A stretch of 64,000 nt of DNA from Neophaeotheca triangularis (Eukaryota), in the NCBI GenBank assembly GCA_054600435.1, contig BAAIJX010000077.1:1-64000 (forward strand). Direction: 5' to 3'. The translations under genes and the position numbers were made by a program. The notes beneath the pieces are model-generated. The model was not told the origin of the DNA and ran no database searches. It saw only the letters and a list, made by a program, of their open reading frames with translations. Shown here one piece after another: positions 54,220-64,000 of the stretch; the first letter of the stretch is position 1, and every line of letters starts with the position of its first letter.

Positions 54220-56195
54220 TCAACCGTTCCAACTCCCAACAGCGCCTAGTGAAGCCCCGAGGCTTGTCGAAAACCCCTTCCCTGGAGTTCGAGAGCTCTT
54301 TCCAATGGTAACAGGAGACGATGCATGGGTAATACTTGCTCGCCTCCCAGGTTCCGGGAGAGGGCGTGTAGAATGGTCGGGCGAGTTTAATAATGGGTTG
54401 CCCGCGCTGGTCTCTTTGCCGTCAGCACTTCCGCGGAAAGATTTCCCGTCACCACAAGCAGGCGCGGAATGCTGCCGGGACACGAGAGCAGAGACTTCAG
54501 AAATGGTTGCATCCCCACGAGGCCCCTTGTTCAACTCTCCTTCCTCCTCGTCCCCGTCCTTAGCCACCTCTTCATCCTCCCCGAAGCCTTTGCCCTCAAT
54601 GAGCCACCAAACAGGCACAGCGGCAGCCACAGCAATCCCAGTCAGCAACCACCAGGGCGCAATAATGTAGCCCTGCTCGACACCCCAAGTGAAAACTGCT
54701 CCGGTGACCGCAGGACCCACAGCTCTGCCAATAGCAGAAGTAGAGACCGCGATGCCATTCAGAGTGCCCAAGACCCTCAAACTGCTCGCAGAGTTCGTCA
54801 ACAAGATTGTCGAACACGGGAAACTGAAGATCGCACAGAAGCCTTTCAGAACGTAGATTACGAAGCAAGTCCATTTGGCTGACTGCTGCGTTGGTAGGAG
54901 TGCTGTGAAAGGTACTAGAAAGTAAGTGATTGGGAAACCGATGGCGCAGACTTTGAGGCAGTTGAGCGATCCGAAGCGGCGCACAAGGGGTGGGAAGAGC
55001 ACGAGTTGCGTTAGCAAGCTGATGATGCCGTAGAGGGTGCTGAGGAAGCCAATCTGGGCTGAGGTCAGACCAAGGCCGCCGGAAAACTGAAAGGCATTGG
55101 TGGAGGAAGCATTGAGGTGGTTTTGGGGATTTGAAGTTGAGTGGAGGCGCGGGTAGTGCATGAAGACTGCGAGGATCTGGTCGCAGACCAGAGTGTGTGC
55201 GGCGAGGAGGGTGTAGACGACGAGGTTGATGACGGATTGCCGGTTGAGAACTTCGCGGTACGAGGGAGCGGGAAGAGAGGGTTTTCGAGTCTTGTGCGCA
55301 ACCATAGTGTCTTCGTCGTCGGAGTAGACTCGCTTGATGAGAGGGTCGGTCTCCCCATCCCCTTGCTTGGCTAGGTCCCGCAGAAGATGTAACAGCTCTC
55401 CTAGCTTAACGGCGTGATGGCTGATGCCACTTGTAATCTTTTTCCCCAGCAAGATTCCGTAGTCTCGGTTATGTTTCTTGCTTTCCAGCGTCTCTTTCAA
55501 GAACAAGACTCCAGTCACTGACCCAATGCCGAAAAAAGCAGCCGAGACGATGTTTGGCAGCGCATAAGGGTACTTTACTAACAATCCACCTTTGCCTCCC
55601 ATCTCTTCTGGCTCGAGTCCCAACGGATTCGCCAAGACGCCTCCAAGTATCGGTCCTAACACGCTGCCTACGTTCCATACCAAAGGCATCACGCTGAAAG
55701 CCCGGGGCTGCAACTCCTTGTATGGCACCATTTCCGCAACAGTCGTCCTTATAATGCCTACGTTGCCTGCACCAGCTCCCATCAGCCCCCTCGCTATCAA
55801 CGCCTGTGTCATGCCTGTGCTAAAGCCAAATAGCAAGCTGCACATCAGTGTCGTTGTCAGTCCCAGTAAGATGGCAGGCTTTCGACCATAGCGATCCGAC
55901 CCTCTGCCCCAGGGTATCCCCATAGCGGCTTGGCTGAGTGAGAAGACGGAGCCGCAGAAGCCTGCATATTTCGGAACGCTCGAGGCCGGGATGGAGAACG
56001 ACTATATCATTTCCGGCAGGTAGGGGAAGATGGAGGTTTGGGCTAAAGGTTCGGCGAAGCGGCAGACGGCTGGATCAATGAAACGGTTAGCATTGATGAT
56101 CTCTGTCGACAGGGCTTATCTCGATTCTCACCCAGAATGGCCAGCTGCTGGTAGGGTAGCTTTCGTTCATGGAGGCTGCTCTCCGAGGTGGCCAT
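54220..56195 (-). pseudogene. MFS transporter (DHA1/TetA-like) with in-frame premature TAG at 56002-56004
   Basis: ATG 56195 (MATSESS..LPYQQLAIL), intron about 56070-56131, then AVCRFAEPLAQTSIFPYLPEMI*SFSIP..; motif A WGRGSDRYGRKP; 567-aa intact remainder. Confidence 0.8.
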
Positions 56196-59100
56196 GATGA
56201 GTATGGATATGAGAGAGGCATAGGTGTAGCAAGGGTGTCCCTCCAACAGCAGGCATTTCAAGTAGCCGAAGTTGTTTGCTATCTATGTACGATAGGGTAC
56301 GGTAGGGTTAGTCACACAGCCTCATGCACAGCCCGCAGTCAGATTGCCAACGAGGTGTTCAAGTAGGTGCAGGAGGTACCTGCCTTCAGGTCTTGTCACT
56401 GTGTAGATGTGGGGTTTATCGTTTGGCGTGGCATGTGATAGGCATATCGGTCCGTTCAAGCCGTTGTGGATCTGGACTGCTGGATCTGGAGATATCGAAC
56501 GACATGCCATTGGATTGTGGTGACTACTTTCTCATGCACTCTTCCTGTGATACCCAAAGCTTCAAGAATAAGACTTGAGTTCCTTTGGATGATATCTAAA
56601 GCAGAGCTTCTCATCTCTTACGTGATATTGTGCAGTCTTCCACGGTGGTGATGACAACCTTTACCGACCTCCATCTACGCAAAGCAACCGCGCGACAGTG
56701 GAACCACTCTCACCCACAGCATCACCATCAACCCTCCAAAATCCACAAAGTGAACTGGGCCCTGGTCTTGGCCTTGAGGCGGAATTACCGCAGGCAGAGC
56801 GATATGATTGACCACGTCATTGTCATTCGTAAGGACCAAATCAATGCAGACTTGGAGCCCGTGGACAGCGGAGTCCATGTCGTAGTAGCTGGATGCGACA
56901 CACGCGTCCCAATTAGCGCCGCTGTCGTAAGACTCCGCGTAGCACCTGTCGTAGCGTTTGTTGTTGCTGCCGATGTTGCCGGGATTCCAGTGAGTTGAGG
57001 AAGTGGGCGGCATCTTGAGCTGTGAGCTGTTAGTTGTGCTCTGGAAGGTCTTGAGAGAAACACTTACTTTCCAAATAGTTTGTGTTGCATATGATGAAGA
57101 GTGTGGTTGGTGGTGAGTTCGAGCACCGACGGCCCGGCGTAAATGGTGCTCAGTCAGCGCACAATCCTCACGTTGAACGCAGCCGCGAATAGCGTTCTCA
57201 CACAGACAACGTTTCGCCTCGTCTAAGACCACAGCAAAGCTTGGTATTCTCTCTTAGAGGCTTAAACATCCACGACATGCTCGCCATGGGAATTGGTGTG
57301 TGTTCTACCGTAGGTATAGCTATGCTGAGAAGGTTCTTGTATCGTCTTCAGTTGCCTGGATATTCGTAAGGCAGCGGGACGTTGTCTGCGAACAAACATC
57401 GGCTCTCGTTACCAAAGATGAGCTCACACTACTATCACGGTGGACATTGATGAAAAGAGATTTGCACTGGTCAATTGTGACTACTGATTTGACGCATCCA
57501 CACTCTGCTCCCTCAACTGTCCCCGCCCATTGCAAGTTGTATTTTCCGTGCTTCATGCGACACCACCCGTCCCAGTATACTGCCTTCTTGCTCACCCAGT
57601 CCATTCATGCGCCTGTGTATCCCGGACGTTACCACTCACTCAAACGGTCATAGCCAGCTCCTCCGCCATGGGCGCTCAATCAAACGAAACGCACAGAAGT
57701 CATCCTGCGTCTGTCCAATTGTGTCTCATGGCAGATGCTTTGAACTCACCTAACGTGCCGAAGTCTGGATCCATCTGCGTGCAGTTGGAGTTGTCGTAGA
57801 TCTGCAAGACCACTATTAGCAAAGAGACACCAAAGGTGCGTTCATTAAAGCAAGAAGGGGGGGAGGGAGAGGGGTCGTAGTCAGACGAAAGATGGTTGGA
57901 TGCCGTCAGCGCGCCATTGGCGCTCAGTATGAAAAGCACTCATTGCTGTCATCACGTAGAAAGAGGGAATGAGGGGAGATGGTTAAGACTCACCACCTGA
58001 TCCTTTGCTGTCGTCGTTCCAAGGAGCTTTCTGCTGCGCTTCGATCGTCTTATCCACAGACGCGACTTTAGCAGGGTAAACCAGTCTAGGCTTCTTGTTG
58101 CGTATGTGTGCGAAGTTGCCGTTTCCTGAGGGTCAGCCCAGTTTTGACCAATCAGAGTTAGCAAGAAGCTCGCAGCTCCGAACGCGGGTCATCCTTGCGG
58201 AACGTAGAAGGACACCGACCTTGCGCATCGATCGGACGATGTCGTTGAGCCCGCCAGACGTCCATATCTTTTCTGGGGTATCCTATGACCTTGCTCTTTC
58301 TGCTTCGTACGGGGAATCGTTAACGCGCGGATGCGTACGTGTGAGTGATGTTGGTGTTTTTGAGCCTTGCGAACACTGCTTGACAGAAAAACTCGATCAA
58401 TCCGAAATTCTGCGTCTTGAGGTAGCTACACCTGTCGAAATGTTTGTTGTCAGCAAAGAACTTTCGACGTCAGTCTGGCAAAAGGACAAGACAGGGCTCG
58501 CATCTCAGACACCGCCCGATATCGCACTTTTCATGCGGATCTCGCGCTTCATTAGAAGCTCAGTCGTTGGGGTTTTGTCATCATCGATAACGCAAAGGGG
58601 GATAGTAAAGGTACTTACAAGTATCTTTGTCTAATGACCATCCTCATTTCCAGAAAAGACTTGCGTGATCTCTGTCCCTCTTGGTCTTGCCGTTACACTG
58701 AAAGAGGTACTTTGGGGTCTGTTGATTTGATCGTCGCGTTGTCATGGGTTGCTAAAATGCTTCAGCAAAATCACGCGCCTTGAAGATGCAAGAGCAATGT
58801 ACCTTGAGTATCCAGACCGCGGAAGTGGAGCCCTGCGAGTTTGGTAGTCTCGTCGGAAGATCGTTGACGTTGCCTCTAAGCGCGGATCCATGGGCGTAGG
58901 GAAAGTGAAAACGGGTTCTGGTGATGGGGCGTGAGTCAGCCTTTGCTCTTCAGGGATGATGGAAGCGAAGGGTTAAGTGCCCTGCTCTTTCTTCCGAAGC
59001 TTCTGCGGTACTGGCAGTTATTCGGAGGCTTTAGGAGCGGATGGATTGTGCACGCTTTCCAGATAGGCGCAGACGTTGCGATATCTTTGGTGGTCTAGAC

Positions 59101-59625
59101 GAGATGTGTTAGCAATGCTGATTTAGTTTGATTCAACAGAAGCTGGCGGCGGCAAGCTAAGCTTTCAGAAACTAACATCTTTTTTATCTCCGTAAGTGCA
59201 TCGCTCATTGCGCTGGCTGTCTGCCCGTAGGTGTTGACGCCGCACTCGATAATTTGTATAATCACAAAGCAGAAAGGGATCAAATGAACAAAGTACACTC
59301 ACTAGGCTTTTTCTTGTCACAATCCAAGCTCGTGAGTCACCGGAAGCTCTCTTGTTTGTAGGAATTGGAAAGGATCGCAGACCATGTCGACGGTTCGTGG
59401 GAAAGGTCATAGCGACGGAAAGATAAGACTGATGGTCGATGGCCCATCCTCAGTCAATCGTGCGGCAGCTCTCTGTGTGACGCGACCGCCCCATCTGTGA
59501 TTTGTACCTTGTTAGCTAGAACGAGAAGGCATGAACAGACCGGAGCTCACCATCGAATTCTTCACTCCACTTTTCTCGGACCAAGGCTGCTCCAGCTGAG
59601 CGGGAGCGATGATCATCTCTGGTGA

Positions 59626-60862
59626 CTTGAGGCCCGCCCACCTCAAGCCTGCGGCAGCCCTTGCAAAGAGCACGTACGATGCTGCCGCCCCACTGGAATC
59701 CTGGAAAAGTCAAGGGCGTTAGTACATCATTGAGCCGTCGGCATGAAAAGAGAACTCACTACGAGTAGGAAGGGGCCCGCCCACCACCATCCATACGACA
59801 GCCCTGGCCCAAAGGACGCAAAAGCTCGCTGTCGCCCCACTGGAATCCCTAGGCAACTGTTAGCTTTCGAACGTTGCTTGTTGGAGGAGACTCACCTCTG
59901 TTGTCACTTATCAGACTGGGAGTCCGTCCCCAAGTGGCTGGGGTCCCGCCCACCCTCAGCCGTGCGGCAGCCCAGAAGCTTTTTGCTGCCGTCCCGCTGT
60001 CTGTCGAAGTGTCAGACTGCTCTTGCTCAGGGGGGGGACACGTACCTATTTCGCAAAGCTGACACACAGATAGTCTGAGGGCCCGCCCTCCCTCAGCCTG
60101 CGGCAGCCCAGAGAACGTTCAGCTGCCGCCCCGCTACCTGTAAAAGTGTCAGAAGCTTTTCGGGGAGGAGACTTATCAGGTTCCTTGAAGTCGACCAGAA
60201 AAGATGGTCTGAGGTCCCGCCCACCCTCAGCCTGCGGCAGCCCAGAAAGCATTCAGCTGCCGCCCCGCTACCTGTGAAAGTGTCAGTAACTGCTTTTCAA
60301 AGGGGAAGCGGACGTACCTGGTATGAGGCAAACGACACACACTTGAATGAGGGCCCGCCCACCCTCATCCTGCGACAGCCCAGAAAGCATTCAGCTGCCG
60401 CCCCGCTACCTGTGAAAATGTCAGCAACTGCTTTCCAAAGGGGAAGCGCACGTACCTGGTTTCAAGAGACGCACACTTGGATGAGGGCCCGCCCACCCTC
60501 ATCCTGCGACAGTCCAGAAAGCCCTTCACTGCCGCCCCGCTCCCTGTAGGAATGTTAGTGCACTCACCTCGCCTGGCTGAGGTCCCACCCTCCCTAGCCC
60601 GCGGCAGTCCATGAAGCCCTCTTCTGCCGCCCCGCACTCACCTCGTCTGGCTAAGGTCCCACCCTCCTTAGCCTGCGGCAGCCCAACTGCTCGACGCTGC
60701 CGCCCCGCTGCCTGTGAAACGTGTCAGCTAAGAGTGCCTCGCTGAGTGAGATTCGGGTGAGAATACTGACTGACTTTGGATGCAGACGAAGCTGCGTTTG
60801 GAAGAGGGCCCGCCCACCCTCAACCATGCGGCAGCCCAGACGCTGAATGCTGCCGCCCCGCT
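59626..60862 (-). repeat. Tandem array of 10 GC-rich double-hairpin modules (mostly about 130-170 bp period) interleaved with intron-like spacers; candidate spliced structured ncRNA or leader
   Basis: Module starts on the + strand at about 59626, 59768, 59936, 60075, 60209, 60347, 60479, 60575, 60649 and 60803. Consensus: CTGAGGG-cccgccca-CCCTCAG-cct-GCGGCAGC-cc(var)-GCTGCCGC-cccgct. Confidence 0.85.
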
Positions 60863-63800
60863 GTTTTCTGTGTGCAGCATGTTAGCGATGACCGAGACAG
60901 CACTGCAGTGTAAGACTTCCCTCATTGGAGCTATCAGCCGCCGTGTGGGCGTTGTGTTGGAACGATGGCGTGATGGGTTGGGAAGTCTGATGAGCGAGGA
61001 AAAATTAGCGAAGAACAGACTGCTCGAAGGGAAGGGAAAAGGGGAGGGTAATGAGCACCTGGGCCTGAGCAGAACTCAGACTTTGTTTGGTAGCCGGTCA
61101 GACTGAAACAATGTTGGCGGGTCGTTCTCGCAAGCGGTGGGGCAAGACTATTGCGCAACGATTAGCGAAGAACGAGTTGTTCGACCAGAAAACGTGGGGG
61201 GGGGATGAGCACCTGGGCTGAGCCAATGGCTCAGCAAGCAAATGGTCAACTTGGTGGGTAGCCTTATGGGGTGCTGATGGGCGGGTGCGACGGCGAGGCT
61301 AGGTGTCTGCATGTAGTTATTGAGTGATCTCGTGGTCAACGTTTGAAGGGAGGGTTGAGTACCTAGGCCATGGAGTGCGAGACATGCCATGACCAGGTGG
61401 GCATATGGTCACTTGAAACGTCGGATGTGGTGAGGTGTTGATGATTGTCGATGCTTATGGGAAGGTATGTTAGTAAGAGTCTATTCAGCAAAGGTATGGA
61501 AGGAAGGTTATGTGAGGATGTGTCAAGAGATGAAGGCATTGGGTGTGTTTGATGTGAGGTGAAGTATATGTCAAGGAAGACGTGATCAATGTCATACCAT
61601 GTGTGGTTGCTGCAATGGTGTGTCGATGGTAGGCGAAGGTGGTATGGTAGAGACAGTTGTGTAAGAGAGTGGAGGTGAGGAAGTTGTCGAATAATGTTGG
61701 TTGTTGGTCGATGTCGAAACTATTTAGAGGAGTGGGAGATACAGGTCAGCCAGCCGAGTTTTGTCAAAAAGCAAGTGGTCTATGCTTTTCGCTACCACTC
61801 CGGTGTGCGTTTGAAAGTGGGACTGTCGAAACCAGTGGGACGTGTTTGCCTTGGCGGCAGCAAGGCGGCGGTATGGTATGGTCTGAAGAGTTGCCGTATA
61901 CGCGTTGGTGTACCCTATATTGCTCATGGATCGACGTGGTCGACCGACATGTTTCTACTGTGTGATATCCATTGGTTTGAACATCATATCCTGTCCCTGA
62001 CAGACACCATTGTTGTGTTTTCCCCATTGGATCGCAAATAAGGGCTTCCCAGCCAGAAGTCTTGTACAGGGGAGGCTGCCTCAGGCTGGGGGGCCTCCCA
62101 GGCCGCAGTGAAGTTCACCAGGATAGTATTATTGTCGGTGGGCAGCAATAATATCGCGCGAGTCTGATCTCCCCTGGAATACTAGGAGATAGACATAAGA
62201 GAACCTCACAAAGGTGCTCTGTTGTAGTTTTGCCGCCAGACGTACTCTTATGCAATACGCTGGCCTGTCTTACTAGAGGTTCCAACACGCAAGAGGAACG
62301 CTTGTCAAACACGCTCTCACTTATTCTCTCGTCTACCAGGGCGCTGATGTTGTGTGTTTGGGTCTTGTGGCCCTCACAAGATCGAGTGTATTGCACATAG
62401 AGCCGTTTGGCAGTACTCTTAACGACTCTCAGTGCGGCGCATAGTCTAGCTAATTGTCGTTGAAACGCGTCCCAACGTGCCCTGGGAAATATGGTACAGG
62501 TAATCAGTCTTTCTGGCGCGCCATGCTGTAACCATCTCGTATGAGGTCCAGAGGCAGAGAGATTTGGCCTTCTATTCGAAGTTGGAACGGTTTCAACCAT
62601 TGAGTACGAATCGGAAAACTGAGGCCCAACTGGCTATGATAGTACCACAAAATGCTGCATCCACCGGCGTTACTGGTGAGAGAAAAGCAATGCCGAACCA
62701 AGAACGTCAAGGTTCCAGACGAGCCGAAACTGGCAAAGCAATGGCACAGTACAGCATGCCATCGCAATGATCCCCCTACGCACTCGCAACATCGACCTAC
62801 CCAACCGCTATCGAACCTTTTTCACTTCGCCGAGACAAGACAGAGACTTTGGTGAAATGCAAGAAACAGCGCGTTTCAGTTCGCCTAGAAAATAGTAACG
62901 ACCGTGCGCAAGGGGCTATTGTTTCCCTACCTGGGCTACATTGATGGAAGAGACGGGCCTAGGGCGACGAGTACCGCATTCGCGACAGGAACTATTCTAT
63001 ACGTGAGCAAGAGGAGTCTACAGGCAAGGCCGGGCATATCGATCACAAACATCCCTGAGAATGGCAACTGGCGCTGCAGTAATGGCTGTTGCGGAAGGCT
63101 GGCAATGTGGCCGATCGTACGGTAGGTTGACGATGCGAGCAGAAGAGCAATGATAAAGAACGGTCACTGAGTGTTGACTAGAAAGACGAGTACATAGCAT
63201 CTAGTTCTTACGGAAGTATCGGGAGCACGCGATGACTTAGAGAAGCACCCGGTAGCATCGTTTGCTAGTTGCTGTATCAGCTTCCAATTCCAAGCCACAG
63301 GGCAGCTCTTTTTGCAGTACCGCAAGCTTGTATCTGACGCGTTCACGAGAGTTATCTGGTGAGATCAGACACAGCCCGTGGCAGACCCTTCGAGCCTTAT
63401 CAACACTGTATCTTTGCCGTGAGCAGAATGCCAAATCTTTCAATAATCTGCTTTCCGCCTTGAACTCTGGTTCACTTGCGCCAGTGCATCAGAAGAGCGA
63501 GCTGTTTTCGGGCTGACGAATCGACATCCTCAACAAACTACCAACAGGCCTCCACCGTTCAATCCATTGGATAGGGACCTCACGATGAGATCTTTTCAGT
63601 CAAGATGCGCTCCTCTGGCTTACACTAATACCTACACAGCTTTTCCCGCGCCGCGATCAACGTACAGGCTGGCCACGCGAGCTAACGATTCCAACCTCTC
63701 GAAACTAGAAGAGTATCTACCCAGTTAACCAACGGGTCTAAGAATTTGGCGGCCATCGAGGTCTTCAAGAGCTTTAGGGTGATTCACAAGGCAAGCGATG

Positions 63801-64000
63801 TCTAAAGAGCTAAGAAAAGCTGGATCAGGATATAAAAACGATGATAGAAGGAAGCTGATTGGATGTAGGCGGATGGTCACAATGGCAGGCAGATAACGGC
63901 AAAGTACTGCAGTGCTGTACTAGACTCGAGTCGAGCGTTTACATTAGCTCTTCTGGCCGGTCGAAATCTCTTCGCTAAGCGACGTCTCATCCGCGATTAG

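Follow-up and report, generated by a model that had tools for sequence, protein, structure and literature searches.

What is the tandem array of G-rich hairpins that occupies the minus strand at 59427-60864 of a 64,000-nucleotide stretch of Neophaeotheca triangularis DNA (contig BAAIJX010000077.1, positions 1 to 64,000; hereafter the window)? A neutral repeat, a by-product of mobile introns, the leader of a coding gene, a set of DNA sites and a gene for a spliced non-coding RNA are all conceivable. An earlier note on this DNA took the duplicated unit to be a short intron plus a structured exon, a view supported by the splice signals, the folding and the unit identities described below. The array is made of 11 copies of one two-hairpin module, about 62-72 nt each; most of its spacers carry a full set of splice signals on the minus strand, and the product predicted from them is non-coding.

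The module array

The copies stand well apart from all other sequence in the window. A covariance model, R1, built from the copies' own alignment, scores them at 51.6-85.6 bits, and the next-best score elsewhere in the window, on both strands, is 13.6 bits. The plain pattern of the first hairpin, P1, has eight matches, all eight inside the array, and none in 100 shuffles. Tandem Repeats Finder describes the array core as a repeat of period 134 with 4.4 copies and 78% matches. The start-to-start spacings of the modules given by the repeat finder are 137, 134, 138, and 134 nt, and a sub-repeat of 74 nt is also reported (a 52-nt repeat with 90% identity at a spacing of 74). The earlier note had counted ten modules and missed the degenerate eleventh at 59427-59497. 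The modules are:

60793-60864, minus strand: M1, two hairpins, G-rich (R1 78.3 bits; alignment)
60642-60711, minus strand: M2, the whole of a 70-nt exon (R1 73.4 bits; exon bounds)
60568-60638, minus strand: M3, within the 98-nt intron 60544-60641 (R1 69.8 bits; 74-nt repeat)
60472-60543, minus strand: M4, 5' end of the 88-nt exon 60456-60543 (R1 84.2 bits)
60338-60409, minus strand: M5, 5' end of the 92-nt exon 60318-60409 (R1 85.6 bits)
60200-60271, minus strand: M6, 5' end of the 95-nt exon 60177-60271 (R1 83.4 bits)
60066-60137, minus strand: M7, in the 92-nt exon 60046-60137 (R1 79.3 bits)
59929-60000, minus strand: M8, in the 105-nt exon 59896-60000 (R1 78.1 bits)
59760-59843, minus strand: M9, with a long first loop, in the 89-nt exon 59760-59848 (R1 54.6 bits)
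59617-59696, minus strand: M10, in the 150-nt exon 59551-59700 (R1 72.6 bits)
59427-59497, minus strand: M11, degenerate, the last copy of the array (R1 51.6 bits)

Structure and pairing of the module

The module opens with a GCGGGG leader that stays single-stranded. Hairpin P1 follows, and two or three bases left unpaired separate it from a second hairpin, P2. The stem arms of P1 are GCGGCAGC and GCUGCCGC, and its loop varies between copies. The stem arms of P2 are GGCUGAGG and CCUCAGCC, closed by the G-rich loop GGGCGG, which is replaced by AGGGUGGGA in two copies. The invariant columns of the alignment are mostly runs of G.

Standard pairs occupy 91.4% of the 174 stem cells, as compared to 85.4 +/- 1.2% when the partners are shuffled, and none of 500 shuffles reaches the observed value. 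Both sides have changed in 6 of the 16 pairs, which is seen in 1 of 500 shuffles, and moving the partner by 1-3 columns brings pairing down to 30-46%. The double changes are spread over different sub-families of module copies: for example, a C-G pair is A-U in two sister copies and U-A in another, and a G-C pair is A-U in two further copies.

A G-quadruplex in place of the hairpin was considered as a side idea; a quadruplex-allowed fold, which covers no quadruplex with a long hairpin loop, swaps the hairpin in only 2 of the 11 modules. No match to any of 4227 Rfam families was found at E values up to 1 on either strand of 57000-64000, and no tRNA was found either. Scans for bacterial promoters and terminators gave nothing useful.

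Intron-like spacers

The sequences between the modules have the features of short introns when read on the minus strand. A donor of the GTRNGT type (GTGAGT, GTACGT, GTCAGT, or GTGAGC) begins eight of nine spacers and ATAAGT begins the other; each of the nine, the ATAAGT spacer among them, has CTGAC or CTAAC 11-18 nt upstream of a CAG or TAG. The seven spacers that had been listed as introns in the earlier note are intron-like exactly where it placed them, with donor, CTRAC, and YAG all present, and the broken donor that it reported at 60138-60176 was confirmed. The spacers, together with the acceptor that precedes the first module, are:

60868-60889, minus strand: branch-point-like GCTAAC and CAG acceptor, immediately upstream of M1 (sequence)
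60712-60770, minus strand: intron-like, GTCAGT..CTGAC..CAG, 59 nt; a second GTCAGT donor starts at 60774
60544-60641, minus strand: intron-like, GTGAGT..CTAAC..CAG, 98 nt, contains M3 (signals; folding at -0.355 kcal/mol per nt)
60410-60455, minus strand: intron-like, GTACGT..CTGAC..CAG, 46 nt (splice signals)
60272-60317, minus strand: intron-like, GTACGT..CTGAC..CAG, 46 nt (splice signals)
60138-60176, minus strand: spacer with broken donor ATAAGT, CTGAC and CAG retained, 39 nt (splice signals)
60001-60045, minus strand: intron-like, GTACGT..CTGAC..CAG, 45 nt (splice signals)
59849-59895, minus strand: intron-like, GTGAGT..CTAAC..TAG, 47 nt (splice signals)
59701-59759, minus strand: intron-like, GTGAGT..CTAAC..CAG, 59 nt (splice signals)
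59495-59550, minus strand: extra intron-like spacer preceding M11, GTGAGC..CTAAC..CAG, 56 nt, absent from the earlier note (splice signals)

The full splice pattern, ending no more than 14 nt from the next module, occurs in 7 of the 10 inter-module spacers; the number expected from 2000 dinucleotide shuffles per spacer is 0.058. The eighth intact intron is 60544-60641, which spans M3. When the same ten spacers are read on the plus strand, the pattern is found anywhere in only two. With a stricter pattern, the region 59300-61600 contains 13 donor positions on the minus strand versus 1 on the plus strand, and each minus-strand 2-kb bin of the whole window outside the array's two bins (58001-62000) contains 0-3.

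The intact introns are 45-59 nt long, except for the one of 98 nt. Weak folding (-0.03 to -0.20 kcal/mol per nt) and a GC content of 44-60% characterize eight of the nine spacers; the predicted exons fold at -0.33 to -0.46 kcal/mol per nt and have a GC content of 59-70%. The ninth spacer, 60544-60641, is structured because M3 sits within it. In length and weak structure the spacers resemble the window's own candidate introns, ten of which, flanked by long in-phase open frames and themselves unverified, measure 48-92 nt and fold at -0.09 to -0.25 kcal/mol per nt. The idea that the module itself is the intron was ruled out: GT is found at the module start in 4 of 11 copies, and the exon tails have no branch point.

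M3 is found inside the 98-nt intron because the 74-nt duplication copied a module together with its donor. Two GTGAGT donors are present in this intron, at 60641 and at 60567. Use of the latter would leave an intron of 24 nt, too short to splice, so the duplication is predicted to force M3 out of the mature RNA.

Predicted exons and coding capacity

In the exon model given by these signals, seven modules each have their own exon, two share an exon, one (M3) is intronic, and M1 is left without a 5' bound. With the ATAAGT donor dead, the 95-nt M6 exon fuses with the next to give an exon of 226 nt. The exon lengths listed previously, 70, 88, 92, 92, 105, and 89 nt, were all reproduced, and the 95-nt M6 exon has to be added to them.

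Joining the exons across the eight intact introns yields 1114 nt, and stops number 6, 10, and 18 in the reading frames of this product. The exon 60046-60137 is by itself closed in all three. The joined 88- and 92-nt exons do have stops in every frame, as had been claimed; the TAG that was thought to lie at their junction is actually at nt 2-4 of the 92-nt exon. Most exons have a length that is not divisible by 3, which puts successive modules into different frames. The longest open stretch of the spliced product, 153 codons, has no early ATG and is equalled or exceeded in 327 of 1000 shuffles; ATGs number 13 in all. None of the 13 open reading frames (ORFs) tested across 56-64 kb belongs to a Pfam family; a fourteenth query, an MFS transporter gene at 54-56 kb, did match. 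Of the array's two longest ORFs, the plus-strand one of 156 aa gave no match in a protein search. The minus-strand 90-aa ORF of the array has no true homologue among 1.84 billion representatives; it has two matches to unrelated tandem-repeat ORFs, whose E-values are those of a weak 17-23 residue match summed up to 12 times. The predicted spliced product is non-coding, as the earlier note maintained, and no frame stays open.

Descent and selection

Copies inherit the features of their founder, and for this reason the decayed parts of the units were compared with the retained parts. The inner sequence of three introns, 60712-60770, 59701-59759, and 59495-59550, resembles that of the other introns no more than shuffled sequence does (none of 18 pairs exceeds the 95th percentile); the donor, branch point, and acceptor of all three are intact. 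In the intron family between 60455 and 59849, 8 of 10 pairs are still alike, and the signals are kept except for the dead ATAAGT donor. Averaged over the pairs of the five most similar units, identity reaches 84% in the module, 57% in the intron, and 36% in the exon tail. Such a pattern is what would be expected from purifying selection on the hairpins and the splice signals, an argument that is indirect and drawn from the sequence.

A proposed spliced RNA with many hairpin modules

The module family, the constraint on its pairing, the strand-specific splice signals with their retention, and the lack of a reading frame are seen in the sequence; transcription, splicing, and a binding role of the array are inferred. 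The favored model, to which we give about an even chance, is that 10 of the 11 modules are strung together in a spliced non-coding RNA, a multivalent platform for a protein that would recognize the G-rich leader and loop on the two hairpins. In this respect the earlier note's interpretation is plausible, with partial support from the sequence itself. The locus would be a minus-strand gene for a non-coding RNA with multiple introns, having grown by repeated tandem duplication of a structured mini-exon with a short intron. Each predicted exon begins 2-10 nt ahead of a module of 62-65 nt. Removal of eight or more short unstructured introns would bring 10 of the 11 modules together in an RNA of ~1.1 kb or longer, and M3 would be spliced out together with its intron. 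The joined RNA would then present one G-rich hairpin surface many times over, and could serve a G-rich-hairpin-binding protein as a sponge, a scaffold, or a localization signal.

Several results weigh against this model. The folding energies are only modestly below those of shuffles: z is -2 or lower in 4 of the 11 modules and positive in one. G-U cells number 9 versus 6 A-C cells, so pairing does not fix the strand. The copies are paralogues of common descent, which makes the partner-shuffle control a generous one that can be exceeded without any structure. A consensus donor is missing from the 135 nt upstream of M1, and the spacer 60138-60176 has a dead one; this dead donor and the intronic M3 mean that the rule of one module per exon is not strict. 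Finally, no relatives of the module were found in metagenome and protein searches. A metagenome scan with a 24-base module pattern returned 88 loci; the 80 of them that were examined each contain one match or a palindromic double and have R1 scores of at most 28.9 bits, far from the 51.6-85.6 bits of the array copies, and are taken as chance matches in GC-rich DNA. Since no relative was found, conservation of the module is seen among paralogues only.

Surroundings of the array

The array lies within an 8-kb stretch without recognizable genes, adjoining the MFS transporter gene at 54220-56001. The closest named relatives of the MFS protein are from Cercospora, Pseudocercospora, Zymoseptoria, Dothistroma, and rock-inhabiting Teratosphaeriaceae; the best hit of the search, at 69%, is to a contig outside these named taxa. 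These relatives place the host among the Dothideomycetes, in the Mycosphaerellales/Capnodiales group, and the searched protein collection contains no close sequenced relative of it. Long direct or inverted repeats that might bracket the array, a mark of a transposon, were absent from 52-64 kb.

Upstream of the array is one further feature:

60987-61218, minus strand: pair of 154-157-nt units (shared blocks; small hairpins)

The resemblance between the two units is concentrated in a pair of exact blocks, GCCCAGGTGCTCAT at 61205-61218 and 61051-61064, and TTCTTCGCTAAT at 61161-61172 and 61004-61015 (minus strand). A small CTGAG/CTCAG hairpin lies ahead of GCCCAGGTGCTCAT in each unit. Judged by sequence, the pair could represent exon-intron units of greater age whose GTGCTC donors are weak. 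Further upstream, a 300-nt tract that closely precedes the array locus (61401-61700, minus strand) consists of 33-43% C and only 6-10% G. On the same strand, TAAATAG is found at 61720-61726, and an ATG followed directly by GTATGA at 61591-61600. The low G content would suit a leader or promoter-proximal tract read in this direction, and the array transcript may have its leader there.

Downstream, about 250 nt past the last module, the minus strand has an intron-like unit of 82 nt at 59095-59176 (GTTAGT..GCTAAC..TAG), so the transcript may continue beyond the array. An annotated 112-aa ORF lies at 56678-57013 on the same strand, and its sole match in the protein collection is the window's own product. 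A canonical 48-nt intron at 57020-57067 (GTAAGT..ACTAAC..CAG) ends 6 nt before the ATG of this ORF, from which it follows that the ORF's transcript starts further upstream. At the other end of the window, 10-54 on the minus strand contains three close matches to GGGGGGGCGGG, a G-rich simple repeat.

Alternative explanations

An unlikely explanation is that the array is a neutral minisatellite-like tandem repeat with a period of 134-138 bp, untranscribed or without RNA function. The splice-like signals and the palindromes would come from the founder, and the compensatory look from gene conversion or from template switching in quasi-palindromes. Template switching can mimic compensatory changes. 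The Tandem Repeats Finder result (period 134, 4.4 copies, 78% matches), the failure of metagenome and protein searches to find relatives of the module, and the donor that has already decayed are all in keeping with a neutral repeat. Neutral decay should be even, however, and the module is 84% identical between units as against 36% for the adjoining exon tail. In addition, the splice signals persist in the three introns that are otherwise at shuffle level (0 of 18 pairs), and the double changes occur in several sub-families.

A serious rival for the origin of the module, which the earlier note did not consider and which deserves weight although we regard it as rather improbable, involves introner-like elements (ILEs), structured introns of Dothideomycetes that are mobile. 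The module would be, or would derive from, the structured core of an ILE, and the array would be a by-product of ILE activity and segmental duplication rather than an RNA with a function. The host lineage, judged from the relatives of the MFS gene, is the group in which ILEs were described. Known ILEs, in the part of the report drawn on here, are longer than regular introns and have stable predicted structures with compensatory mutations (PMC3609843), and the spacer 60544-60641 fits this description, with 98 nt, -0.355 kcal/mol per nt, and canonical signals. In common with ILEs the array has its host lineage, splice signals of canonical type, a stable fold, and compensatory changes. ILEs, however, are whole introns dispersed in unrelated genes, whereas here 10 of the 11 structured parts are exonic and in tandem: they lie between an acceptor and a donor, outside the predicted introns, and only for M3 is the structured element a complete intron. 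That single intronic copy is explained by the recent 74-nt duplication of a module with its donor. The rest of the 64-kb window contains no copy of the module, although a stretch of this size is too short for a verdict on genome-wide dispersal. The ILE sequences in the supplement of PMC4457414, which covers few ILE families, have no likeness to the module; a motif look-up there gave one unrelated CTGCCGC match in an ILE-bearing sequence and three other motif matches outside ILE entries.

We consider it just as doubtful that the array is the long, structured, intron-rich 5' leader of a coding gene further down the minus strand, whose hairpins and upstream ATGs would throttle translation. A very long 5' leader was allowed by the earlier note. 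The intron-like unit past the array (59095-59176) would suit such a transcript, as would the 112-aa ORF with a canonical intron just before its ATG and hence a transcript start further upstream. However, 2.4 kb separate the array from this ORF, the only match to the ORF is the ORF itself, and no Pfam family was recognized in the ORFs tested between 56 and 64 kb. The 13 ATGs of the spliced array also count against a leader. Leaders of 1 kb or more are unusual in fungi.

A very unlikely variant is that the locus is the birthplace or master copy of ILEs, a heavily spliced non-coding gene whose exons are stable hairpin modules. The 74-nt duplication of module and donor would, on such a scheme, already have made a canonical 98-nt intron with ILE-like structure (60544-60641). 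If module-bearing introns could reverse-splice elsewhere, structured mobile introns would arise from structured exons.

Least probable of all is that the array acts as DNA, presenting GC-box-like sites (GGGTGGGCGGG and GCGGGG, which we take to resemble GC-box and SYGGRG sites) about 135 bp apart to a zinc-finger transcription factor, for although the invariant columns are mostly G runs and GGGTGGGCGGG occurs with at most one mismatch 8 times in the array and 16 times in the window versus 1.6 expected, such sites leave the compensatory stem changes and the retained strand-specific splice signals unexplained.

Relation to known systems

Several short structured or protein-binding copies within one long non-coding RNA give multivalent binding in the case of the Xist A-repeat and the NORAD repeat units. 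These repeats lie within single exons, are mammalian, and are unrelated in sequence to the module. We know of few fungal long non-coding RNAs with a defined structural domain.

The closest analogue of the array is the exonic repeat of the FIRRE long non-coding RNA. Its repeat, RRD, is specific to that locus and is present in 7 of the 13 exons in human and in 11 of the 23 in mouse; it serves as an RNA domain that binds hnRNPU, for nuclear retention (PMC4820808). The array would share this placement of a locus-specific repeat in separate exons of a spliced non-coding RNA if its exons are those predicted. The RRD is about 156 nt long and FIRRE is mammalian with long introns, whereas the two-hairpin module is 62-65 nt and the array is fungal with introns of 45-59 nt. 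There is no sequence relation between the RRD and the module, and transcription and binding are predictions in the case of the array.

The mode of growth has a parallel in the same-gene duplicated introns of fungi, in which an intron and its flanking exon are copied together by segmental duplication; they were reported in 11 fungal species in the portion of PMC3609843 drawn on here. The 134-138 nt unit of the array likewise combines an intron with a flanking exon copied together. The duplicated introns described there belong to protein-coding genes and number at most 16 per species (PMC3609843), whereas at least nine copies are found here in one non-coding locus, with conservation residing in the exon.

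The literature search found no account of a comparable array in fungi, and strings of the module motif were found only in unrelated, mostly human papers. Term look-ups in the main text of two surveys of conserved structured RNAs of fungi (PMC5640933, PMC8216456) found neither "tandem" nor "repeat".

If the favored model of a spliced, multivalent RNA is true, a fungal RNA with ten covarying two-hairpin modules would be a compact and tractable counterpart of the mammalian repeat-domain long non-coding RNAs, one whose module number would depend on short introns apparently maintained by selection. Its location in a lineage with structured mobile introns, together with the one intronic module, opens the way to a direct test of how structured exons and structured introns are linked.

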